Positions 31,517 through 63,191 of a stretch of 64,000 bases of DNA are shown here, one piece after another. A program made the position numbers and the translations under genes. The first letter of the stretch is position 1; each line of letters begins with the position of its first letter. Location of the stretch: positions 931 through 64,930 of the forward strand of contig JAYWBA010000187.1 of the NCBI GenBank assembly GCA_043781915.1. Reading direction: 5' to 3'. The stretch comes from Saprospiraceae bacterium (GTDB taxonomy: Bacteria; Bacteroidota; Bacteroidia; Chitinophagales; Saprospiraceae). The notes under the pieces were generated by a model. The model saw nothing but the letters and a program-made list of their open reading frames with translations, was not told the DNA's origin and did not search any database.

Positions 31517-32173
31517 TTAAATATTTTCAAGCGTTGAAATCCAGTTATTAAAGCGAGGCGCTTTGGCACGAATATTATCTAAGCCTATCTCTTCCGCTAT
31601 AAGTGGTCCTAAAACAGTTTTCTTATAACCGTTTATAAGTTTCAATAATCGTTTTGAAGGAGCAGTATTTGGGTTATCGTTAATTAATTCTGGATTTGGA
31701 TAATCTTCAATAATTTTTTCAAGTTCTCCCAAATTTTTAAATTCATTAGCATTTATCTGATTTTTGAAAGATAAAATATTATTGAATAATAAGCCCTCAA
31801 ACTCGTGCAATTGAACGTAAGGAATAAAACGGTGGTTCAAATCTTCAGATATATCATTCTTCATTGAAAATTCGATGAAATCCATCTTTTTATTTTTATC
31901 AACCAATTTTATTTTATCCTTCCAATTAGGAAAATTATGTTTCGATTGTATTCCATAATAATCAATTAATGTTGTGACATAAGCATCTTTATTTTGTTTC
32001 AGATATGTTTCAATTTCGTTTTTTAAACTATTCCAATGCACTATTCCACCATTTGATTTCCCAATGAGTTTCCTTTTTAAAATTATACCTTTGTTGGAGA
32101 AATGGGGATATAATAGAATTTTACAAAATTCTTGCTCGGTTTCACCCTCGCATATAATTATAATGAGCTTCAT
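31517..32173 (-). CDS. DUF4276-like (Toprim-like) protein, module 1
   Basis: MKLIIIICEGETEQEF (EG-TE motif), LIDYYG, FIPYVQLHEFEGLLF, NPELINDNPNTAPSKRL, PRFNNWISTL. Starts 2 nt after the ATPase stop codon. Confidence 0.7.
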   Translation of the reverse strand: MKLIIIICEGETEQEFCKILLYPHFSNKGIILKRKLIGKSNGGIVHWNSLKNEIETYLKQNKDAYVTTLIDYYGIQSKHNFPNWKDKIKLVDKNKKMDFIEFSMKNDISEDLNHRFIPYVQLHEFEGLLFNNILSFKNQINANEFKNLGELEKIIEDYPNPELINDNPNTAPSKRLLKLINGYKKTVLGPLIAEEIGLDNIRAKAPRFNNWISTLENI

Positions 32174-32175
32174 TT

Positions 32176-33243
32176 TTAGTTGGGTTGACCAGTTTCAATA
32201 ATACTCCTTTTCCATAAATCGTCAATGGTATGGTTGTCTAACCAAATCGCTAATTCATTTGATTCAAGTCTTTTAAATTGGGTTTCACCATTTATTTGAT
32301 CAACTGTAATAACATCTTCGGGCTTAAAGTGACTTATGAGATCTGCTGATTGTGTAGCTACTATAATTTGGCAATCTCTCGAAGCGGCTGATTGAATCAT
32401 GCCTGCTAATTTTGCAATGGCAAACGGATGTAAACCTAGTTCTGGTTCATCAATAATAATTGCGGAAGGTAAATCGGGTTGCATAAATAAAACTGTCAGG
32501 GCAATAAAACGCAAAGTTCCATCTGACAGGTCATTAACTCCATAGATAGTTGAACTCAATTTATCTCTCCATTGTAACGCAATGGAGTCAACTCCGTTAG
32601 GGTGTAAATAAAATTCGAAGAAATATGGTGCAACACTTTGGACAATCTGTACGATTCTTCTGAATGTTTTAGGATTTCTTTCACGTAACATAAATAAAAA
32701 AGCTGCGATATTTTTGCCATTTTCATAAAGAGAATACACATCGTTTCTAATATTAGATTCAATCCCGAAGGGAGAAGTCGGTCCAGTATCCTGAAAGTGA
32801 TATTTCCTCACTGAACTTAAATATTGCTTTATATCTTCAACTTTATATTCTGGATTAAATCTTAGTTTGGTTTCTTTGCCTAAATACTGATTATTATCTT
32901 TCCCAAGAATGACCTCATTTCTAAAATATGTAGTTTCAGAATTAATAAAATAAAAATTTGAATCCCCTCTTTTAATTTCAACTTCATAAGCATTATCACC
33001 AAAACCTAGCTTTAAATTAATGGCTTGTGTCACTTTGCTTCCTTTGTGAAGCATTTTTTCAAATGAACCTTTTCGTGCTATATATTCATCAAGCCTTGTT
33101 TCATACATGGCATTTAAAAATTCGAAAAAAGAGAGAAAATTTGTTTTGCCACTGCCATTTGCACCAATAAGAATATTAATAGGCTGTAGCTCAACGCGTG
33201 CATCCTTAATTGATTTATAGCCTTTTATTTCTATATAGTCCAT
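32176..33243 (-). CDS. ABC/SMC-type AAA ATPase (AAA_15/21-like), module 1
   Basis: Walker A ILIGANGSGKTNF, signature-like LSDGTLRF, Walker B AIIIDEPELGLHP, H-loop-like IVATQS. ATG at 33243 preferred over TTG at 33252. Confidence 0.8.
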   Translation of the reverse strand: MDYIEIKGYKSIKDARVELQPINILIGANGSGKTNFLSFFEFLNAMYETRLDEYIARKGSFEKMLHKGSKVTQAINLKLGFGDNAYEVEIKRGDSNFYFINSETTYFRNEVILGKDNNQYLGKETKLRFNPEYKVEDIKQYLSSVRKYHFQDTGPTSPFGIESNIRNDVYSLYENGKNIAAFLFMLRERNPKTFRRIVQIVQSVAPYFFEFYLHPNGVDSIALQWRDKLSSTIYGVNDLSDGTLRFIALTVLFMQPDLPSAIIIDEPELGLHPFAIAKLAGMIQSAASRDCQIIVATQSADLISHFKPEDVITVDQINGETQFKRLESNELAIWLDNHTIDDLWKRSIIETGQPN

Positions 33244-33381
33244 ATTGAGCAAAATAATTTCTAAAACTATACAAATTTAAAACACTTCACTCAAAAAATA
33301 CTAATTCTTTTATAAATCCCTACTTTTGCGTCTTAAACTTTGAATCAGTAAGATTGTTTAAGTTTAAATCACTCGCTCTGC

Positions 33382-35247: not shown

Positions 35248-35322
35248 GGAATAATTTATAGAGAATAGGGAATAATGAAGAGAGGAAATTATTCCCTATC
35301 ACTTATTCCTTATTCCCTATTA
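35245..35322. repeat. Word hairpin (AGGGAAT/AATAGGG words) between convergent genes
   Basis: ATAGGGAATAAT (35265-35276) pairs perfectly with ATTATTCCCTAT (35288-35299). Outer arms are imperfect. Overlaps both stop codons. Confidence 0.7.
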
Positions 35323-35796
35323 TACTACCTTATCTGCACAATTCGACGATGCAAACGCATCGGGTTTGGCTTTGAATGTAAACCCCATTCCCATAATATA
35401 ACCCATTGCTTCTTTCAAAGCCACATTCGATTGGAAATAAGGGTCAGTATTAATATCGGCATGTACTTCAAGCTCTACGTCGTATTTGTCGAGTAAATCG
35501 CACAAACCGTATGCAATTTCCACCGACTTACCCACTTCCGTAATCATGCGTTCGCGCAATGACATTGGTTTGGTTGACATATCGGGTTGAATGAACATAA
35601 AACCGCCTTTGCGTTCGCGCAAAAAAACGATAACCGATGCAAAATGGATTTCCTCGCCGCGCACCTGAGAGTCGGTGCCGATACAAACTTTGAGTTTGTT
35701 TCCGAGTTCGTGTTCTCTAATAATTGTTTGTTCTACGGCCGCTTTAATTGGTAATTCAATTTTTTGGCCGTTTAATCGTCGCCACATTTTCTCCAT
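35320..35796 (-). CDS. YkuK-like (DUF458) RNase H-fold protein
   Basis: CIGTDSQVRGEEIHFASVIVFLRERKGGFMF and HADINTD resemble the YkuK family. Confidence 0.5.
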   Translation of the reverse strand: MEKMWRRLNGQKIELPIKAAVEQTIIREHELGNKLKVCIGTDSQVRGEEIHFASVIVFLRERKGGFMFIQPDMSTKPMSLRERMITEVGKSVEIAYGLCDLLDKYDVELEVHADINTDPYFQSNVALKEAMGYIMGMGFTFKAKPDAFASSNCADKVV

Positions 35797-51701: not shown

Positions 51702-52382
51702 TTAAAAACCAATTCCAAAAGATTGGAACACCCCCATTATAACCAAAACACCACCTGTAAGTAAACCTGCATTGTGTTCTATACTGTGCCAATTTATTTT
51801 TTTCAATCCATGCTGTACCAAATTCACCCAAAGCAACATTCCTGAAACAGAAATGATTGAATATACAGCCACTAATGTTGCCACTGCCGACAATCCAAAC
51901 TTACCCGCGCTAAAAAAAACGGCAACCACTTCAAGGCAAGGCGAAAAAAACATTAACACTAATAATTGAACCAATAACGCTCTAAAAGTATTGTTTTGTG
52001 TATTCAAATTTTCGGCAGAAAAGTGAAAATGATGGTGTGTATAATGTCGAAAAATAAAAAAAAATCCATATAAAATTAAAAACACACCCGAGACTTTGTC
52101 AAATGAATTTGAATATTTTTCGAACAGCGTTTGACCGATTAAACTAATTGCACAACAAAGCAGAACAGTGCTGAGAACGTGTGCTAAACCGAGATAGAGT
52201 GTAGCACGCATGGTTAATGCCTTCGACCAACCTGCATTTTTGGAAATAACCGTAATGGGCAACCAATGACTGGGTATCAAGGCATGAAAAAAACTGATGA
52301 GACTAACTGAAATCAAGAGTGCGGTCATGAAGGCAATAATACTGCTTTTGCCTGATTTTTTTATTTGAATTAGAAAAATCAT
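51702..52382 (-). CDS. Metal-transporter-like membrane protein (NicO/RcnA-like guess)
   Basis: Six TM helices, FFHALIPSHW (HA-x-P-x-H) and the His-rich loop HYTHHHFHF. Confidence 0.4.
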   Translation of the reverse strand: MIFLIQIKKSGKSSIIAFMTALLISVSLISFFHALIPSHWLPITVISKNAGWSKALTMRATLYLGLAHVLSTVLLCCAISLIGQTLFEKYSNSFDKVSGVFLILYGFFFIFRHYTHHHFHFSAENLNTQNNTFRALLVQLLVLMFFSPCLEVVAVFFSAGKFGLSAVATLVAVYSIISVSGMLLWVNLVQHGLKKINWHSIEHNAGLLTGGVLVIMGVFQSFGIGF

Positions 52383-52417
52383 TTCAAATTATAGGTAATA
52401 TGAAATCATATATTCTA

Positions 52418-52558
52418 AGCAGTTGCAAAACCAGTATATGGGCGAACTTTTTCAGATTGAAAACCTAAAACAATATTGGATGCAGGAACGCCACGTTTCA
52501 TTAATTCATCGGCTACTAAAATTTCGGAGTTATTAATGAGTAACCAGATTTTGCCGTT
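52418..52558 (-). pseudogene. XisI-family protein, C-terminal fragment only
   Basis: Minus-strand translation NGKIWLLINNSEILVADELMKRGVPASNIVLGFQSEKVRPYTGFATA* matches the XisI C-terminal consensus. A stop codon lies immediately upstream and there is no N-terminal half. Confidence 0.7.
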
Positions 52559-52570
52559 TTAGGATATCAT

Positions 52571-53263
52571 TTAGTAGACAAAATAGTTTTTTTCATTTTT
52601 CAATTCAGCAATTAAAGTCTCAATCCAATTTTTAAATCTAGGACATTTTTTCATAGTTGTTGCTAAAGTATTTTCGATTGCTATTATTGGTCCATCAATA
52701 GATTTATCATAAGCAGGAATTAAATCATTTAATCTTTTAGATGGTGCTGTTTGTAACCCATCATTTAATAATTCGGGGTTAGGATTTTCTCTTACAATAC
52801 TGTACAATTTTTCTCTTCCGTCATCATCTATTTTATCAAGATAATCAAATCCTTTTGTGTCGGAAAAAAGCAAACCTTCAAATTCGTGTAATTGGATGTA
52901 AGGAATGAATCGTTCACTATTTATATTCTCGGCAATTGCTTTTTCTAAAAAATCAACACGTTGAACTTTATCTTTATCATTTATCTTTTTACTCTCTTCA
53001 AACTTTGGGAAGCTAGTATCGAGTTTAAAAAAATCAATCAACGAAGTAACGATTATATCTTTTTCACTCTTGAGTTTAGATTCGATGTTGTATTTGAATC
53101 GGTCATAATTAAGACCACCGCCTTTTTGTTTATGTTTTGAACCTGTACTAAGCAATAAGGGGCTCACATTATGTATTCCAATCGATGTGAAAAACGGAAT
53201 TAATAAAGAGTTGACGAATTCCTCCTCTGTTTGCCCTTCTACAATTATGTATAATCTTTTCAT
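52571..53263 (-). CDS. DUF4276-like (Toprim-like) protein, module 2
   Basis: MKRLYIIVEGQTEEEF, LIDFFK, FIPYIQLHEFEGLLF, NPELLNDGLQTAPSKRL, PRFKNWIETL. ATGA start/stop overlap with the ATPase gene. Confidence 0.7.
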   Translation of the reverse strand: MKRLYIIVEGQTEEEFVNSLLIPFFTSIGIHNVSPLLLSTGSKHKQKGGGLNYDRFKYNIESKLKSEKDIIVTSLIDFFKLDTSFPKFEESKKINDKDKVQRVDFLEKAIAENINSERFIPYIQLHEFEGLLFSDTKGFDYLDKIDDDGREKLYSIVRENPNPELLNDGLQTAPSKRLNDLIPAYDKSIDGPIIAIENTLATTMKKCPRFKNWIETLIAELKNEKNYFVY

Positions 53264-54375
53264 TTTGGTCGCCCTCCTATTACGTTTTTCTCCCACAATT
53301 CACCCAATGAATAATCTTCGAGCCAATGCTTTAGATTTTCTTCCGATTGACGCGTGAATACAGATTGATTGTCTTTTCTATCAACAACAATTATATCATC
53401 AGCCGAAAACTCATTCACTAAATTAACAGATTGTGTTGAAACAATTAACTGTGACTTATGTGATGCTATTCTTAATAGACCTGCCAATTTTGAAATCGCA
53501 AATGGATGTAAACCCAATTCTGGTTCATCTATAATTATTATTTCTGGTAATTCGGGTTGCAATAATAAAGTTGCTAAGCATATAAACCGTAGCGTTCCGT
53601 CCGATAGATTGTGCGCGGCAAATAATTTATCTGATCCTTTTTCTAACCACCTCAGAAAAATTTGTTGATTATTAATTTCGTCGGGTTTCAAAATAAACTT
53701 ATCCAAAAATGGCGCAACTGATTGAACAACTCTTTCAATCAATTTAAAATTTTTAGGCGATGCTTCTTGTAGTCTGTATAAAAATGCAGCGATATTGCTT
53801 GCATCTTCGCGTAAATAGGAATAATCTGTTGAAGAAGCAGGCTGTTTGATTCTTGCTTCAAAACTTGTGTCATTAAGATGAAAAGGTTTTATAGTTGAAA
53901 AGAAAGCCTTGATATCTTCATATTGATTATTTAACATACCAAGCCTTGCTTTCAAGATACTTTCAGTAGAACCTGAAATGCTGGTGTGACCTACAAACCT
54001 CAAATCTACCCATTTATCAACTTTAAAATTATCATTATTTAAATTAAACCGATCATCTGAAAAAATAAAATTTCCATTTATATCAGGCTCCAGTTTAAAA
54101 TGAAATTGGCTTTTGAAACTATTATTTAAGATGACTTCACCCGATAAAAATTTTGATTTTTTAGAACCAAAGTATAAAAAATCCTCAGCACCTCCGTTTT
54201 TTCTTACGTAAAAACTTAAATTTTCATCATAGAGATTTTTCAAAAACTTAAAAAACCCAATAAAATTACTCTTACCCGCACCATTAGCACCAATCAGAAT
54301 ATTCAACTTGCCCAGTTCAATATCTGCTTCGCGAATAGATTTAAAGTTCTGTATTTTTATTGATGCAATACCCAT
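53260..54375 (-). CDS. ABC/SMC-type AAA ATPase (AAA_15/21-like), module 2
   Basis: Walker A ILIGANGAGKSNF, LSDGTLRF, Walker B IIIIDEPELGLHP, IVSTQS. Alignable end to end with the 32176-33243 product. Confidence 0.8.
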   Translation of the reverse strand: MGIASIKIQNFKSIREADIELGKLNILIGANGAGKSNFIGFFKFLKNLYDENLSFYVRKNGGAEDFLYFGSKKSKFLSGEVILNNSFKSQFHFKLEPDINGNFIFSDDRFNLNNDNFKVDKWVDLRFVGHTSISGSTESILKARLGMLNNQYEDIKAFFSTIKPFHLNDTSFEARIKQPASSTDYSYLREDASNIAAFLYRLQEASPKNFKLIERVVQSVAPFLDKFILKPDEINNQQIFLRWLEKGSDKLFAAHNLSDGTLRFICLATLLLQPELPEIIIIDEPELGLHPFAISKLAGLLRIASHKSQLIVSTQSVNLVNEFSADDIIVVDRKDNQSVFTRQSEENLKHWLEDYSLGELWEKNVIGGRPK

Positions 54376-54501
54376 CTAAGATTTTATGTCTAAAAATTTA
54401 GTCAAAGTTAGTTTGAATAAGTTTATTTAACAAAGATTCAGAGTAGTAGAAATTTGTTTTTCAAAATATTCTTATTAAGAGAAAAAATTACCCAAACGAA
54501 T

Positions 54502-55194
54502 TTACTTATCAGGGAAACATTGCGGACCAATTGCACCACCATAATATTCGAGCAAAATATTTTTTGTAAAATTTCTAAAATTGCATTGCGCATCAAGTTG
54601 TTTCTGATAATTAGAATTAATCAACTTGTCAAAAATATTGTAAAAATACATTCCCATTCCACTTCTTTTAAAACCAATTTGAGTTGGCTCACCATTTGTA
54701 ACTGATATGCAATTTGCTCTTAAAAGTTTTTCTTTTATAGTTTTGAAAGTGTTGAAATTCCATTTTAAAGTGGTGATTACTTTTTCAAAACTTAATGTTT
54801 GTATTAATCCGCCAGGACTTGGGACATCTGAGTTAGGCTCTTTTTTATAATTGAAAGGGTCTATGTCCCATTCGGCAAACAACCCTTCTTTTCTTCGAGA
54901 GTTTTCATTCCATTCTGTTATTCTCAAATCAATCCGATTATTTTCTTTAAATTCGATATAAACCTCATAACCAATTGGAACAACTCTATTAATATATCTT
55001 TTGAGTTCAAAAATTTCAATAGTATTGAGTGTGAAATTTTCTTTTAATTCTTTCTCACTCGACATGGGCATATCATTAAAAAAATCTGAGAAAATCTTTG
55101 TTAAATCTTTTTGGCTAAAAATCTTGGAGTTAATTGCTATAAAAAAGAGAAAGCATAATACCAGTCGAGTCCTATTTAACTTTATTAGTTTCAT
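54502..55194 (-). CDS. Hypothetical secreted protein (A+T-rich, accessory)
   Basis: Signal-like N-terminus MKLIKLNRTRLVLCFLFFIAINSKIFSQ. No family recognised. Confidence 0.4.
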   Translation of the reverse strand: MKLIKLNRTRLVLCFLFFIAINSKIFSQKDLTKIFSDFFNDMPMSSEKELKENFTLNTIEIFELKRYINRVVPIGYEVYIEFKENNRIDLRITEWNENSRRKEGLFAEWDIDPFNYKKEPNSDVPSPGGLIQTLSFEKVITTLKWNFNTFKTIKEKLLRANCISVTNGEPTQIGFKRSGMGMYFYNIFDKLINSNYQKQLDAQCNFRNFTKNILLEYYGGAIGPQCFPDK

Positions 55195-55315
55195 AAATGA
55201 CTAAATTTTACTTTTTTCTATTGAAATTTTGGTTAGAATATATCTCCATAATTATTAAAACCTCGCAGCATCCGAAAATATCACGAGGTTTTTTTTAACT
55301 TTTAATTTTTAACTC

Positions 55316-59827: not shown

Positions 59828-59858
59828 CAAAGGTAATAGGTTAGTTTAAATTTCCAAA
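59828..59858 (-). promoter_or_regulatory. Bacteroidota-type promoter (TTTG-N19-TACCTTTG)
   Basis: Minus strand: TTTG at 59858-59855 and TACCTTTG at 59835-59828, with a 19-nt spacer. It sits about 20 nt upstream of the leader ATG. Confidence 0.45.
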
Positions 59859-59970: not shown

Positions 59971-62397
59971 ATGAACAAAGAATATGAAGAAGGCAGGAAA
60001 AAACTTGAAGAACTTATTGTTTGGAATAAGAAATTCGTTAATATAGATAGGAATGAAGATACAACTAGACTTCATTTAATTGACAGTCTCCTTTTTGATT
60101 GCCTAAACTGGAAAAAAGAAGATGTGATTACAGAAGAATCATTTGATGCAGAGTTCACCGACTACACTCTTCGTCTCCCACGCCCTTCAATTATTGTCGA
60201 AGCTAAAAGAGAGGGAAATTATTTTGAACTTCCTTCAGGTAAGAATAGAACTGAATATAATCTTTCAAATTTATGCAGGGATAATCCTGATTTAAAAAAA
60301 GCAGTCGAACAAGTTTCTGCATATTGCCAAAAAAGGGGTACCGAAATTGCAATTATTTCTAATGGTTGGCAATTAGTCTCGTTTGTTGCTGTTAGACTTG
60401 ATGGAATACCTCCTATCGAAGGTAAAGCTCTAGTTTATGACTCTTTAGAAAATATGTTAAGTAGGTTTACAGAATTTTGGAATCATTTATCATACGATGG
60501 TATAAGTAAAAAAATTCTAAAAACTCGATTATGTGGTACAATTATACCAGAATTGCCTACAAAACTATCTAGTATTATCTCAAATTACCCAGGTATCAAG
60601 AATAGAAATTCAAATCAAGCGGATTTACAAGTTTTAAGCGAAATAGTTTTTGAAGATGTTATAAAAACAGGGGAATTAGAGACAATATTTCTAGAAGAAT
60701 GCTACTGTAATGCTGGCGCTTTATCAAATTATTCTTCTCTTAGTAAAGATATTTTAAAACTAAGATATGAAAACTTTTTTGATACAGACTCTGAGAGTTT
60801 AGCCTTATCACCCGCATCAGGAAAAAAAGGTATTAATGAAGAACTAGTTAATGTTACCGCACAAAGCTTAAGCAGAAGACCAATTTTACTAATAGGTGAC
60901 GTTGGAGTTGGCAAATCGACTTTCATTAATTATTTAATAAAAGTCGAAGCTAAAGAAATTTTTGAAAACTGCATCACTTTTAAAATTGATTTAGGAAGTC
61001 AAGCTATTCTAGCTTCTAACTTGAATGAAGCTATTGTAGAAGAAATAATTAAGCAACTTTTAGACAATTACGATATAGATATTTTTGAAAACCACTTTGT
61101 TAGAGGTATTTATCATGGTGATTTTGAAAGATTTAAAAGGGGGGTTTACAAACCTTATTTCGAAAATAATCATGAAAAATCAATAGAAATTTCGATAGAA
61201 TTTTTTATTGAAAAGCAAAGAAATAAAGTAGAACATTTAAAAAACGCACTATTTCATCTCGCTAAAGGAAGAAAAAAACAAATTGTAATTTTTATAGACA
61301 ATTGCGATCAAAGAGAATATGACATTCAGCAGAAAGCTTTTTTAATTTCCAACGAAATAGCTGAACATTGGCAACCAGTAACTATTTTTTTAGCTTTACG
61401 TCCAGAAAGTTTTCATAATTCATTAAAAAAAGGATCTTTAACAGGATATCATCCCAAGGCATTTACGATTGCTCCGCCGAGAATTGATTTGGTAATTGAA
61501 AAAAGATTGGATTTTGCTAGAAAAATAGCAGAGGGAGAAATTCCATTGTCCCAATTCAATAAATCCGAAAATAAAGTTGGTATTCAATTATCGAATTTAA
61601 GTACTCTAATTCACGTTCTTATTTTTTCTTTGGAGAAGAATAAAGAACTACACAAATTTATTGAAGATATTTCTTGCGGAAATGTTCGGAAAGCTGTTGG
61701 GATGATTACTAATTTTTTGGGGAGTGGACATGTTGACACTAAAAAAATTATTCAAATTCAAGGAAATGGGGATAATTACATAATACCTCTGCATGAATTT
61801 TTTAACGCGGTAATTTATGGAGACAATATTCATTTTGACCCTAACAGTTCGCAAGTTTCAAATATTTTTGACATAAAATTTGACGATCCTAAGGAACATT
61901 TTTTAACACCAATTGTTTTAAGTATACTTGAATCACAATTGCAAGCTGTTAATAATAATGGATTTTTTGAAACATCTATTCTATCTAATCATTTGCAAAG
62001 TTTAGGATTTACAATCGATCAAATTGATATTGTATTAAGCGATTTAATTGAGAAGAATTTAATCGAGACCTCGGCTAGGGGTAGAGCCTTCACAAAAATT
62101 AATTTACCTCCGATGTTAAGACTCACTTCAACTGGCTCATATCATATCAATAATCTTTGTTCTTATTTCCCATATATTGATGCTATAATTGTCGATACTC
62201 CGATTTTCAAAGAAGCAAAAAATGAAATTAAAGATATTCATGGGATTATAAACAGGCTAGAAAGAGTTATTGTTTTCAAAAACTATCTCGATGAAATTTG
62301 GAAAAAATTTGATTCTCAGAAAACTTTTTTTAATTGGTCATCTAAATCAATTGAACTCCAAGCTGATATAAATAAAATTAAAGCAAAGCAATCTTAA
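59971..62397 (+). CDS. Fusion protein: HsdR-N/Mrr-like PD-(D/E)xK nuclease domain + P-loop NTPase + uncharacterised C-terminal region
   Basis: N-terminus NEDTTRLHLIDSLLFDCLNWKKEDVITEESFDAEFTDYTLRLPRPSIIVEAKREG...AVEQVSAYCQKRGTEIAIISNGWQLVSF. Walker A LLIGDVGVGKSTF. Walker B VIFIDNCDQRE. Visibly A+T-rich. Confidence 0.7.
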   Translation: MNKEYEEGRKKLEELIVWNKKFVNIDRNEDTTRLHLIDSLLFDCLNWKKEDVITEESFDAEFTDYTLRLPRPSIIVEAKREGNYFELPSGKNRTEYNLSNLCRDNPDLKKAVEQVSAYCQKRGTEIAIISNGWQLVSFVAVRLDGIPPIEGKALVYDSLENMLSRFTEFWNHLSYDGISKKILKTRLCGTIIPELPTKLSSIISNYPGIKNRNSNQADLQVLSEIVFEDVIKTGELETIFLEECYCNAGALSNYSSLSKDILKLRYENFFDTDSESLALSPASGKKGINEELVNVTAQSLSRRPILLIGDVGVGKSTFINYLIKVEAKEIFENCITFKIDLGSQAILASNLNEAIVEEIIKQLLDNYDIDIFENHFVRGIYHGDFERFKRGVYKPYFENNHEKSIEISIEFFIEKQRNKVEHLKNALFHLAKGRKKQIVIFIDNCDQREYDIQQKAFLISNEIAEHWQPVTIFLALRPESFHNSLKKGSLTGYHPKAFTIAPPRIDLVIEKRLDFARKIAEGEIPLSQFNKSENKVGIQLSNLSTLIHVLIFSLEKNKELHKFIEDISCGNVRKAVGMITNFLGSGHVDTKKIIQIQGNGDNYIIPLHEFFNAVIYGDNIHFDPNSSQVSNIFDIKFDDPKEHFLTPIVLSILESQLQAVNNNGFFETSILSNHLQSLGFTIDQIDIVLSDLIEKNLIETSARGRAFTKINLPPMLRLTSTGSYHINNLCSYFPYIDAIIVDTPIFKEAKNEIKDIHGIINRLERVIVFKNYLDEIWKKFDSQKTFFNWSSKSIELQADINKIKAKQS

Positions 62398-62419: not shown

Positions 62420-63037
62420 TTAAAACTCAATATTCTCATAAATATCTTCCAGCGCGATTTCGATGCCGAGCGAGCGTAAAGCTATGGTTTTATTCAAATC
62501 ATTTACAATTTCAGTTTCCCAACGATTATTGCTAACTATTAGTCTTGACTCAACTTGTGGTTTATTTTGCTCTATTAAAACATATTCTTTGAAAGAAGCT
62601 AATGTTTTATAGGCTTCAAATTTTTCGTCTCTGTCAAAATTTCGCGTGCCTTTCGATGCGACTTCAACAATTAAAATAGGGTTTGTAAGCAAACTTTTAG
62701 AACCGAATTTATACTCCAACTTTTCAAAGACGACTAAAACATCTGCATAAAATACAGCGTCAATTTCTGAAATATAAATACCCAAATTGCTATCAAAAAC
62801 TCTAAATTTCTTATTTGCGTTTTTGATAGCGTTTTTAATAGCAAATCCTGTGTTTATAGTTATTTCGCTGTGGCTACTTGTTCCTCCTGCCATAAGTTTG
62901 ATTTCTCCGTTATAGTATTCGTGTTTGTGTTTTGATTTTTCTTCGCGTGCGAGGTACTCCTCTAACGTGTAACGTTTCGGTTCTGAAACTTTCTTTTTTT
63001 CTGGCAATGATGCAATCGCAGATGTCATACGGTTCAA
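62420..63037 (-). CDS. Uma2-family (DUF820) endonuclease
   Basis: EYYNGEIKLMAGGTSSHSEI, ADVLVVF, PILIVEVASKGTRNFDRDEKFEAYKTLASFKEYVLIEQ. Confidence 0.75.
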   Translation of the reverse strand: MNRMTSAIASLPEKKKVSEPKRYTLEEYLAREEKSKHKHEYYNGEIKLMAGGTSSHSEITINTGFAIKNAIKNANKKFRVFDSNLGIYISEIDAVFYADVLVVFEKLEYKFGSKSLLTNPILIVEVASKGTRNFDRDEKFEAYKTLASFKEYVLIEQNKPQVESRLIVSNNRWETEIVNDLNKTIALRSLGIEIALEDIYENIEF

Positions 63038-63191
63038 ATTTTATTCAAAATTACGGTTAAAATATTTAATCGCCAAATGGGAAATAAATATCAACCTCTT
63101 ATTGCGTTTGAGAGCGTTTGAGCGAGAGATTGAAACTTTCAATTCCTTTAATTTTTTCATTTGGATTTTAAATGAGAGAAAAAACGTTTTG

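Follow-up and report, generated by a model that had tools for sequence, protein, structure and literature searches.

HEC-01 (Hma-embedded candidate 01) was catalogued in PADLOC-DB v2 as an ABC ATPase accompanied by a TOPRIM protein with an OLD-like metal site, and the sole homologue that its discoverers tried gave no protection to E. coli MG1655 (10.1101/2024.01.29.577857). Another HEC-01 homologue was challenged with T4, T5, and T7 in a single heterologous test in E. coli B and gave protection from at least one of the three phages (10.1101/2024.09.26.614923). DUF4276, the Pfam family of the TOPRIM component, has been assigned to the Toprim superfamily with its catalytic residues present, and it includes the homologue Mad4 (PMC12065111). 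The mechanism of a comparable ATPase-nuclease pair has been described for AriA/AriB of PARIS (PMC11464382). HEC-01 is abundant yet little studied; embedding in Hma or another defence system was the context of its discovery, but the PADLOC model does not demand it.

Two gene pairs of this kind lie about 20 kb apart in the window, by which we mean the entire stretch of 64,000 nucleotides analysed here from an uncultured Saprospiraceae bacterium (Table 1). Judged by their profile matches, both pairs are further members of the PADLOC candidate system HEC-01; since each matches HEC-01A and HEC-01B, their kind is already catalogued, and the locus adds nothing categorically new. Both pairs combine AAA_21/AAA_15 with DUF4276 in Pfam, and the catalytic motifs are intact in both genes of both modules. 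The HEC-01A profile scores 460 bits against the module 2 ATPase (residues 3-370 of 371) and 419 bits against that of module 1, with the next-best PADLOC profiles far below (AriA 109, mad3 105, NsnB 90, and AbiLi 80 bits). The initial annotation had reported a second two-gene ATPase-DUF4276 module, and its open reading frames, their sizes, and the overlap of the two genes are exactly as described: the module 2 DUF4276 frame spans 52571-53296 on the minus strand (241 aa from GTG, 230 aa from the ATG at 53263), and this ATG overlaps the ATPase TGA by 4 nt as ATGA. In module 1, the DUF4276 start codon abuts the ATPase stop codon. Module 2 is probably best explained as an intact two-gene HEC-01 defence candidate, a split OLD-like ATPase/Toprim nuclease belonging to one of two old subclades with separate histories.

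Table 1. Coordinates of the two HEC-01 modules and of the elements surrounding module 2 (positions within the window)
Feature	Position	Strand	Details
HEC-01B / DUF4276 protein, module 1	31517..32173	-	218 aa; PADLOC PDLC04188 3e-79
HEC-01A-type ABC ATPase, module 1	32176..33243	-	355 aa from ATG; mechanical ORF starts 33252; subclade B
xisI C-terminal remnant	52415..52558	-	47 codons (52418-52558) plus stop; Pfam XisI 65-110 of 110, E 3e-14
HEC-01B / DUF4276 protein, module 2	52571..53263	-	230 aa from ATG; Pfam DUF4276 4e-48; PADLOC HEC-01B PDLC04188 2e-74
HEC-01A-type ABC ATPase, module 2	53260..54375	-	371 aa; Pfam AAA_21 1e-33; PADLOC HEC-01A PDLC04175
Variable insert of module 2 ATPase	53881..54270	-	residues 36-165
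Promoter-like element, Bacteroidota type TTTG-N20-TAACTTTG	54403..54434	-	28 nt upstream of ATPase start
Orphan protein	54502..55194	-	230 aa; signal-peptide-like N-terminus
Hairpin + T-run, aro operon terminator	55257..55290	-	3' of DAHP synthase/chorismate mutase gene; visible inverted repeat

All of 240 ATPase homologues share the Walker A, ABC signature, and Walker B/D-loop motifs without variation; both window ATPases have them too, and in module 2 they are intact as G29..GK35S, S258-D-G-T, and I280-IIDEPELGLHP, respectively; the H-loop position is occupied by TQS, with Gln there in all 240 homologues. The AlphaFold2 model of the module 2 ATPase has a pLDDT of 92.9, with low values at residues 118-126, and its best Foldseek matches are the heads of SMC, Rad50, and RecN proteins, retron PtuA, GajA, and OLD (E down to 7e-16). 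On the strength of these motifs and of the predicted ABC head fold, the protein is an SMC/Rad50-head-like ABC ATPase of the AAA_15/21 group, and its model contains no long coiled coil. Column entropy in the insert peaks at residues 106-165, and this distal part is hypervariable across the subclade to which the protein belongs.

The second protein of module 2 is a candidate OLD-like Toprim nuclease, as suggested by its predicted Toprim fold together with invariant acidic residues. Its AlphaFold2 model (pLDDT 93.1) gives as its top five Foldseek matches in the PDB the C-terminal regions of OLD proteins (E 5e-4 to 2e-3, probability 1.0, TM 0.41-0.55), the foremost being the Toprim-containing regions of the Burkholderia and Xanthomonas enzymes (6NK8, 6NJW), while a search of PDB sequences with the DUF4276 family profile returned nothing meaningful. 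Seven residues are invariant among 113 diverse homologues (E9, G10, E13, D77, E127, E164, and K187). E9 stands in a VEG context, and a literal DxD is absent from the module 2 protein (LID77FF), so the canonical Toprim DxD is not obvious; D77 is the only invariant Asp in this segment, and E127/E129 may supply the other ligands. Grouped at 50% identity, the proteins found in the DUF4276 search form 3,018 clusters.

The two modules align from end to end, with 38% identity between the full-length ATPases (E 2e-82) and 42% between the DUF4276 proteins (E 2e-51); every identical block quoted in the initial annotation is visible in these alignments, and the similarity extends well beyond the P-loop motifs. 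One explanation of this likeness is a duplication within the lineage followed by fast divergence under diversifying selection, as the same architecture recurs 20 kb away on one contig and can be aligned throughout. Such an origin is extremely improbable, however, because other Bacteroidota orders contain, for each window ATPase, more than 120 clusters of database sequences that are 55-84% identical to it, far above the mutual 38%. The earlier statement that the duplication is not recent is upheld. ATPase identity is at least 52% within each subclade and at most 48% between subclades A and B, the A|B split was recovered in 40 of 40 neighbour-joining bootstrap trees, and the DUF4276 partners split in the same way, indicating that the partner proteins co-diverge. 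In the sister genome GCA_965192945.1 (lineage L088), types A and B are likewise represented by one module each, type B being located elsewhere than in the window, and type B inserts show no resemblance to the variable insert of module 2. Pairwise alignment and phylogeny thus favour two old subclades: on this sequence evidence, module 2 (A) and module 1 (B) represent widespread HEC-01 subclades with separate histories.

The intervening 20 kb holds mostly ordinary cellular genes (a topoisomerase IV/gyrase A-type subunit, M16 and M1 peptidases, TonB, SPFH, and HscA), and the modules are therefore separate insertions rather than parts of a shared defence island. Together with the bootstrap support for A|B, this speaks against the proposal that the pairs are diversifying paralogs within one locus range. 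Module 1 is flanked by moxR and hscA, and module 2 by the DAHP synthase gene, the orphan gene, the xisI remnant, and a membrane protein gene. No recognisable defence system surrounds or adjoins either module in the window, and the neighbours have no PADLOC match; the window also contains no tRNA genes, and flanking repeats, direct or inverted, do not go beyond short matches at chance level.

A module of type A lies directly after the aro operon in at least three lineages of the genus, among them that of the window and the sister lineages L084 and L088, whose aro-operon proteins are 85-97% identical to those in the window and in which the module immediately follows the DAHP synthase gene. In this Saprospiraceae genus, type A is a long-term resident next to the aro operon, and the site of type B differs by genome. 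Among 80 GTDB species loci compared around the DAHP synthase gene, none of the 59 informative ones from other species (at least 3 kb of downstream sequence) has HEC-01 within 10 kb of this gene, and these 59 species include 15 closer Saprospiraceae. The closest representative says nothing about the presence of the module, since its sequence extends for only 591 bp past the DAHP synthase gene and has a different small lipoprotein gene there. For module 1, the genes upstream of the HscA orthologues were compared in three sister lineages and are different ones, so that the module is absent at hscA there, with no clean junction; a metagenome scan with MoxR found a single relative in which synteny is broken on both sides and no HEC-01 lies beside moxR. 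Neither module is universally conserved in the family Saprospiraceae. Comparison with related genomes, which had been suggested as a check, bears out the absence of the modules at these sites elsewhere but provides no clean empty site for module 2, because synteny downstream of the DAHP synthase gene is lost outside the genus.

The sequence around module 2 separates it from the aro operon. The hairpin with its T-run is kept in the sister lineages and parts the two; it is missing from the consensus terminator scan, and its identification relies on the inverted repeat seen in the sequence and on the conservation of this repeat. The promoter-like element sits in a stretch of about 75 bp that is conserved in the sister lineages. 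A scan of the window for the same pattern, which we take to be the consensus of Bacteroides and Flavobacterium promoters, gave 9 matches against 3.0 expected, including one shortly upstream of a Uma2 gene and another that precedes the first gene of the aro operon by about 160 nt. Scans for sigma-70 promoters and terminators returned counts at chance level, as expected for a Bacteroidota genome, and the Bacteroidota-type pattern was the more informative of the two promoter searches.

The orphan protein was correctly described as secreted in type, with a signal-peptide-like N-terminus, and has no match in Pfam, NCBIfam, or PADLOC, and a His-rich membrane protein of 226 aa near module 2 likewise matches no family, so that its earlier description as metal-transporter-like finds no support there. 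The orphan gene, placed between the terminator of the aro operon and the promoter of the module, is peculiar to the window lineage and is missing from the locus in L084 and L088, where the gap between DAHP synthase and ATPase is 126-128 bp; the orphan is probably not part of the HEC-01 system. The xisI truncation noted earlier is likewise borne out by the Pfam match, and the remnant, which lies at the downstream edge of the module and occurs only in contigs of the same organism, is a rearrangement scar. The description of the surroundings as an A+T-rich islet holds for composition (52-55 kb has a G+C of 28-34%, whereas most of the window is at 35-40% within a total range of 28-44%, and the orphan gene is lowest in the region at 28%). 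The islet is not fresh, however, as the same module type occupies the site in two sister lineages, and what is specific to the window lineage is not module 2 itself but just the orphan gene together with the xisI scar.

This neighbourhood also bears on the idea that module 2 is a housekeeping pair for DNA repair or RNA processing (SbcCD/RecF-like) that is functionally tied to the conserved genes beside it. The position kept after the aro operon in three lineages, the purifying selection on the ATPase core, and a fold nearest to SMC/Rad50/RecN heads are in its favour. Yet the pair is missing at this locus in the 59 other species, a terminator and a separate promoter-like element stand between it and the aro genes, the HEC-01 family is patchily distributed across phyla and on plasmids, the ATPase has no long coiled coil, and replacement by very divergent alleles would be unexpected for a core repair gene. 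A housekeeping role is accordingly very unlikely, and the defence candidate remains the preferred reading.

Such allele replacement is evident within the genus. Between the window and L088, sliding identity of the ATPases is 13-63% in the insert and 77-100% in the C-terminal half, with dN 0.51 and dS 1.28 in the insert against dN 0.046 and dS 0.54 in the conserved part; between P0003 and L084, identity is 97% in the C-terminal half and 50% in the insert. Elsewhere in the ATPase, divergence follows that of the housekeeping flanks or is smaller, and the conserved parts are under purifying selection (omega about 0.08, Nei-Gojobori). The module 2 locus is, on these sequence comparisons, a mosaic in which divergent alleles have replaced the ATPase insert and the nuclease gene, each in different lineages, the insert being the replaced part in L088. 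Segment-wise Nei-Gojobori dN/dS stayed below 1 everywhere and so gave no sign of positive selection, in a test of low power because the swapped segments are nearly saturated at synonymous sites. Gene conversion with module 1 as the donor of the divergent insert was also considered and rejected, as the inserts match type A sequences only.

A tentative interpretation, which we consider possible but by no means the likelier outcome, is that HEC-01 undergoes cassette exchange: the insert would read the trigger, the insert and the nuclease gene would be swapped through homologous recombination, and types A and B would be functionally complementary, non-interchangeable, and for that reason kept together in this genus. 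The insert sits where SMC and Rad50 proteins carry their coiled coil, and recombination would be anchored in the 5' end, which is nearly identical, and in the C-terminal half, which is conserved. If this is true, the lineages provide naturally occurring chimeras with which specificity could be mapped in the ATPase-Toprim defence family. The locus in any case represents a natural experiment in which a module stays at the same site in three lineages with its insert and nuclease swapped independently, while a second, non-exchanging subtype resides in the same genomes, and the natural chimeras indicate the part of the ATPase that probably sets specificity.

As to function, we infer by analogy an ATP-dependent sensor controlling a Toprim nuclease. 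The ATPase, translationally coupled to the separate DUF4276 protein, would form an oligomer that keeps the nuclease inactive, as in PARIS AriA/AriB; a variable surface, here the insert, would sense a phage-derived trigger in an ATP-dependent manner; and the metal-dependent Toprim nuclease would then be released or activated to cut nucleic acid (tRNA or DNA) and thereby stop the infection. The same parts might instead constitute a selfish addiction module resembling a toxin-antitoxin pair, in which the nuclease acts as toxin under the restraint of the ATPase, and which persists without phage defence. The Pfam label of AAA_21 ('putative AbiEii toxin, type IV TA'), the lack of defence by the first HEC-01 tested, the presence of the pair on plasmids (13 carry the DUF4276-ATPase pair), and the tight coupling of the two genes all agree with this alternative. 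It is nevertheless unlikely, given the stable vertical inheritance at a single place in the chromosome, purifying selection that equals in strength that on the neighbouring housekeeping genes, a hypervariable and swappable insert better suited to target recognition, the protection conferred by one HEC-01 against phage, and the proven defence function of related ATPase-Toprim pairs such as PARIS. Addiction and defence are also compatible roles, as abortive-infection systems often act like toxin-antitoxin pairs.

Compared with the systems described so far, the modules agree with HEC-01 in their two-gene organization of an ABC ATPase and a separate TOPRIM (DUF4276) protein and in full-length profile matches, but they stand alone among housekeeping genes rather than inside Hma, and their host is an uncultured Saprospiraceae bacterium with two subclades in one genome. 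In effect, each is a split OLD-family ATPase/nuclease related to PARIS, AbiL, and the Mad3-Mad4 pair of MADS. The OLD nucleases (P2 Old, the class 2 enzymes of Burkholderia and Xanthomonas, and GajA of Gabija) share the ATPase class and, by fold, the Toprim-plus-helical region; their two parts are fused, however, whereas here they are two open reading frames with their own start and stop codons, there is no UvrD-like partner, and similarity between DUF4276 and OLD is undetectable in sequence. MADS resembles the modules in having an AAA_21-type ATPase (Mad3) and a DUF4276 homologue (Mad4), and the mad3 profile matches weakly; yet the two ATPases reach 107.5 and 110.3 bits with the NCBIfam MAD3 model (NF047739), whose cut-off is 420, and the genes adjoining the modules are unrelated to the further mad genes (a methyltransferase and others). 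Menshen offers a similar parallel through NsnB with NsnC-DUF4276 variants, its NsnB profile matching the window ATPase weakly, but no adjacent gene matches a further component of any defence system (the orphan and the membrane protein by PADLOC search, the others being ordinary Pfam families). PARIS differs in that its nuclease AriB is a DUF4435 protein, whereas the nuclease candidates here match DUF4276 alone in Pfam and not AriB in PADLOC; the module 2 ATPase falls short of the length of AriA (55 kDa) by about 100 residues and is matched by the AriA profile at 109 bits versus 460 for HEC-01A; and PARIS is often phage-borne, in contrast to DUF4276, which occurs in 0 of 50,697 phage genomes. 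Nevertheless, PARIS, as OLD class 4, is likewise split into co-evolving genes for an AAA_15/21 ABC ATPase (AriA) and a Toprim nuclease (AriB), and its variable ATPase surfaces have been proposed as readers of different triggers, making it the best mechanistic model for the HEC-01 modules described here.

The ORFs of the two-gene architecture are as proposed in the initial annotation, and both modules are present (table below); in module 2 the ATPase stop codon TGA and the downstream ATG share ATGA as described. The ATPases of modules 1 and 2 are 38% identical over their entire length (E 2e-82) and the small proteins 42% identical (E 2e-51), far beyond P-loop motifs, and every identical block quoted initially was found in the alignments. 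Pfam assigns AAA_21/AAA_15/SMC_N to both large proteins and DUF4276 to both small ones. At full length, the PADLOC profile HEC-01A, the ABC ATPase of candidate defence type HEC-01, scores 460 bits for module 2 and 419 bits for module 1, and HEC-01B, its DUF4276/TOPRIM protein, reaches E 2e-74 and 3e-79, respectively. PADLOC scores of other named relatives are far lower (AriA 109, mad3 105, NsnB 90, AbiLi 80 bits), and with NCBIfam MAD3, whose cut-off is 420, the window ATPases reach 107-110 bits. Both pairs match HEC-01 in textbook fashion, and module 2 belongs to an already catalogued candidate defence type. Payne et al. defined HEC-01 as an ABC ATPase paired with a distinct TOPRIM protein, and E. 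coli carrying their tested homologue was unprotected (10.1101/2024.01.29.577857); in a later study another HEC-01 is reported to have protected E. coli B from one or more of phages T4, T5 and T7 (10.1101/2024.09.26.614923).

Coordinates of the two modules, their neighbours and features of sister loci (window positions unless L084 or L088 is named)
Feature	Position	Strand	Size or note
Module 1 ATPase ORF	32176-33252	-	
Module 1 DUF4276 ORF	31517-32173	-	
RNaseH_like gene	35320-35796	-	158 aa
Polytopic membrane protein	51702-52382	-	226 aa
xisI C-terminal remnant	52418-52558		47 codons
Module 2 DUF4276 ORF	52571-53296	-	241 aa from GTG, 230 aa from ATG at 53263
Module 2 ATPase ORF	53260-54375	-	371 aa
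H-loop-position residues, module 2	53428-53439		residues 313-316, S/A-T-Q-S
H-loop-position residues, module 1			residues 296-299, S/A-T-Q-S
First 35 ATPase codons	54271-54375		low dS
Conserved upstream region	54376-54450		~75 bp
Promoter-like match	54403-54434		28 nt before HEC-01 ATPase start
Orphan protein	54502-55194		230 aa
Promoter-like match	59828-59858		~160 nt before first aro-operon gene
P-loop NTPase-like protein	59971-62397	+	808 aa
Uma2-family gene	62420-63037	-	
Promoter-like match	63046-63077		9 nt before Uma2 gene
UvrD-like helicase, L084	2227-4608	-	upstream of aro operon
EAD11 protein and UvrD-like helicase, L084	19901-21116	+	helicase 1086 aa
Second ABC ATPase, L088	13656-15599	+	647 aa

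For each ATPase, the databases contain more than 120 clusters that share 55-84% identity with it, with sources including Pedobacter, Dyadobacter, Flavobacterium, Mucilaginibacter, Bacteroidales and Chitinophagaceae, among others. Identity is at least 52-54% inside each set of matches and 36-48% across them, a neighbour-joining tree separates the sets in all 40 bootstraps and assigns the two window ATPases to different subclades with 40 of 40 support for each, and the DUF4276 partners split alike (62-87% within a type, 42-45% between types). The modules therefore represent two old subfamilies, with module 2 in A and module 1 in B, and the alternative that they arose by duplication inside the lineage is contradicted by the phylogeny. 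The earlier reading as diversifying paralogs in one locus is borne out only in part: the second, diverged copy stands, but the subfamilies are old and the 20 kb between the modules hold mostly ordinary cellular genes.

The source organism is uncultured, with relatives from glacier-fed stream and similar metagenomes. In two sister lineages whose aro-operon proteins are 85-97% identical to those of the window (L084, from metagenomes, and L088, in GCA_965192945.1), the next gene unit after that for DAHP synthase/chorismate mutase is a type A module, at a distance of 126-128 bp; type A is therefore a genus-level resident of this site. Outside the genus, no HEC-01 gene occurs in the retrieved flank of any of the 59 species loci whose downstream sequence runs to at least 3 kb. 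The aro-operon terminator hairpin is kept in the window, L084 and L088, and the region upstream of the ATPase, conserved across lineages, contains TTTG-N20-TAACTTTG, which we take to be a Bacteroidota promoter pattern. TTTG-N19-21-TAnnTTTG occurs nine times in the whole window versus 3.0 expected, and three of these matches precede a gene in the same orientation. The A+T-rich islet described initially is borne out, with G+C reduced to 28-34% around module 2. Its truncated xisI spans positions 65-110 of the 110-position Pfam XisI profile (E 3e-14), a scar confined to the window lineage, and its putatively secreted orphan protein has a signal-peptide-like N-terminus and is family-less in Pfam, PADLOC and NCBIfam; in the window lineage the orphan gene is inserted between the aro terminator and the ATPase upstream element. 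The downstream flanks are unlike in the window, L084 and L088.

Several neighbours deserve mention. The HEC-01 module of L088 is followed, 1.9 kb downstream, by a second ABC ATPase with PtuA/AriAB/GajA/Old-like matches (about 70 bits), giving that lineage a small group of ATPase-type defence candidates beyond the aro operon. In L084 an EAD11 (effector-associated domain) protein and, after it, a UvrD-like helicase lie 9 kb downstream of the module, and a further such helicase precedes the operon. Just upstream of the window's aro operon, the 808-aa protein has only weak P-loop NTPase matches (AAA_22, AAA_16, KAP; E about 1e-4) and none in PADLOC, and could be an uncharacterised STAND/KAP-like NTPase. 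Beside it, the Uma2-family putative restriction endonuclease (Pfam 2e-26) matches PADLOC single-gene candidate PDC-S03 (2e-19), with a 73% identical copy near the aro operon in L088. The 226-aa membrane protein has a His-rich loop (HYTHHHFHF) and no match in Pfam, NCBIfam or PADLOC; its initial, putative label as metal-transporter-like is plausible.

Module 1 homologues of sister genomes are just 62-67% identical (tblastn) and lie in unrelated contexts (L090 in GCA_043758385.1, L093 in GCA_965192945.1), and hscA and moxR, its flanks in the window, have different neighbours in sister lineages. Type B thus moves around or is repeatedly acquired. The RNaseH_like (PF04308) gene directly downstream of hscA keeps this arrangement in another sister locus, L097, and therefore belongs to the conserved backbone rather than to module 1. 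As in the window, both types are represented by one module each in at least one sister genome (GCA_965192945.1).

Within module 2, divergence is distributed as a mosaic. ATPase residues 1-35 are identical in the window, L084 and L088; residues 36-165 (the insert) are 78% identical to L084 and 13-63% to L088 in 30-residue windows, with indels; residues 166-371 are 86% and 93% identical, and the DUF4276 protein 65% and 87%. The same pattern is seen in the synonymous and non-synonymous distances: dS is 0.7-1.2 (omega 0.03-0.09) in flanking housekeeping genes and 0.54-0.91 (omega 0.08) in the ATPase C-half, dN is 0.51 and dS 1.28 in the L088 insert, and in the L084 candidate nuclease gene dN is 0.28 and dS, at 2.6, is saturated. 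Another homologue, P0003, shares 97% identity with L084 over the C-half and only 50% over the insert. The simplest reading is that segments have been replaced by divergent alleles at a fixed locus. Immune genes typically show such replacement in the parts that determine specificity. No segment compared has an omega of 1 or above, and these values give no indication of positive selection. The first 35 codons have a dS of 0.13-0.19, versus 0.5-1.2 elsewhere, and adjoin the conserved upstream region, which points either to constraint acting on the 5' end or the mRNA leader or to an anchor for recombination. In both subclades the most variable columns fall in the distal insert (~106-165 in type A, ~76-135 in type B), where the sole low-confidence stretch of the ATPase model also falls; on the predicted fold, this region would separate the N-terminal lobe of the ATPase head from the C-terminal one, at the SMC/Rad50 coiled-coil position.

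The module 2 ATPase model (pLDDT 92.9) matches SMC, Rad50 and RecN heads, as well as retron and Septu PtuA, GajA and OLD. None of 240 homologues departs from the Walker A, LSDGT signature or IIIDEPELGLHP Walker B/D-loop motifs, all of which both window ATPases retain intact, and Gln replaces the usual H-loop His in all 240 HEC-01A homologues examined, which may slow or alter ATP hydrolysis across the family. Among 113 diverse DUF4276 proteins, from a family of 3,018 clusters at the 50% level, E9, G10, E13, D77, E127, E164, P174, K187, F210 and W213 are invariant (module 2 numbering). Both modules are accordingly predicted to be catalytically competent. For the AlphaFold model of the module 2 DUF4276 protein (pLDDT 93.1), the top five matches in the PDB all come from OLD nucleases of Burkholderia and Xanthomonas, in their Toprim-containing C-terminal regions (E 5e-4 to 2e-3, probability 1.0, TM 0.41-0.55); at the sequence level no solved structure matches. 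DUF4276, the family of MADS Mad4, has been classed within the Toprim superfamily (PMC12065111), and DUF4276 is among the AAA_15/21 ATPase partners listed with PARIS (PMC11464382).

What the analysis shows is gene coupling, intact motifs, predicted folds and the variability pattern. By analogy with PARIS, the HEC-01 ATPase would act as sensor and restraint, its variable insert as the trigger-reading surface, and the DUF4276 protein as a metal-dependent nuclease effector using E9, D77, E127 and E164. A purely selfish addiction module is a rival reading that does not exclude abortive-infection defence, whereas a housekeeping repair role is unlikely because of the patchy distribution, separate transcription unit and allele replacement. 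Although the type itself is known, the fixed position with independently swapped insert and nuclease, and the presence side by side of two insulated subtypes, offer useful starting points in a mechanistically uncharted family, if unsurprising to a specialist. The closest understood system is PARIS, in which AriA, an ABC ATPase, is the scaffold that keeps the Toprim nuclease AriB sequestered; once AriA has detected a phage protein in an ATP-dependent manner, AriB is freed and cleaves host tRNA-Lys, and AriA surfaces of low conservation are proposed to read different triggers (PMC11464382). The two modules of the window amount to split enzymes of the OLD family.
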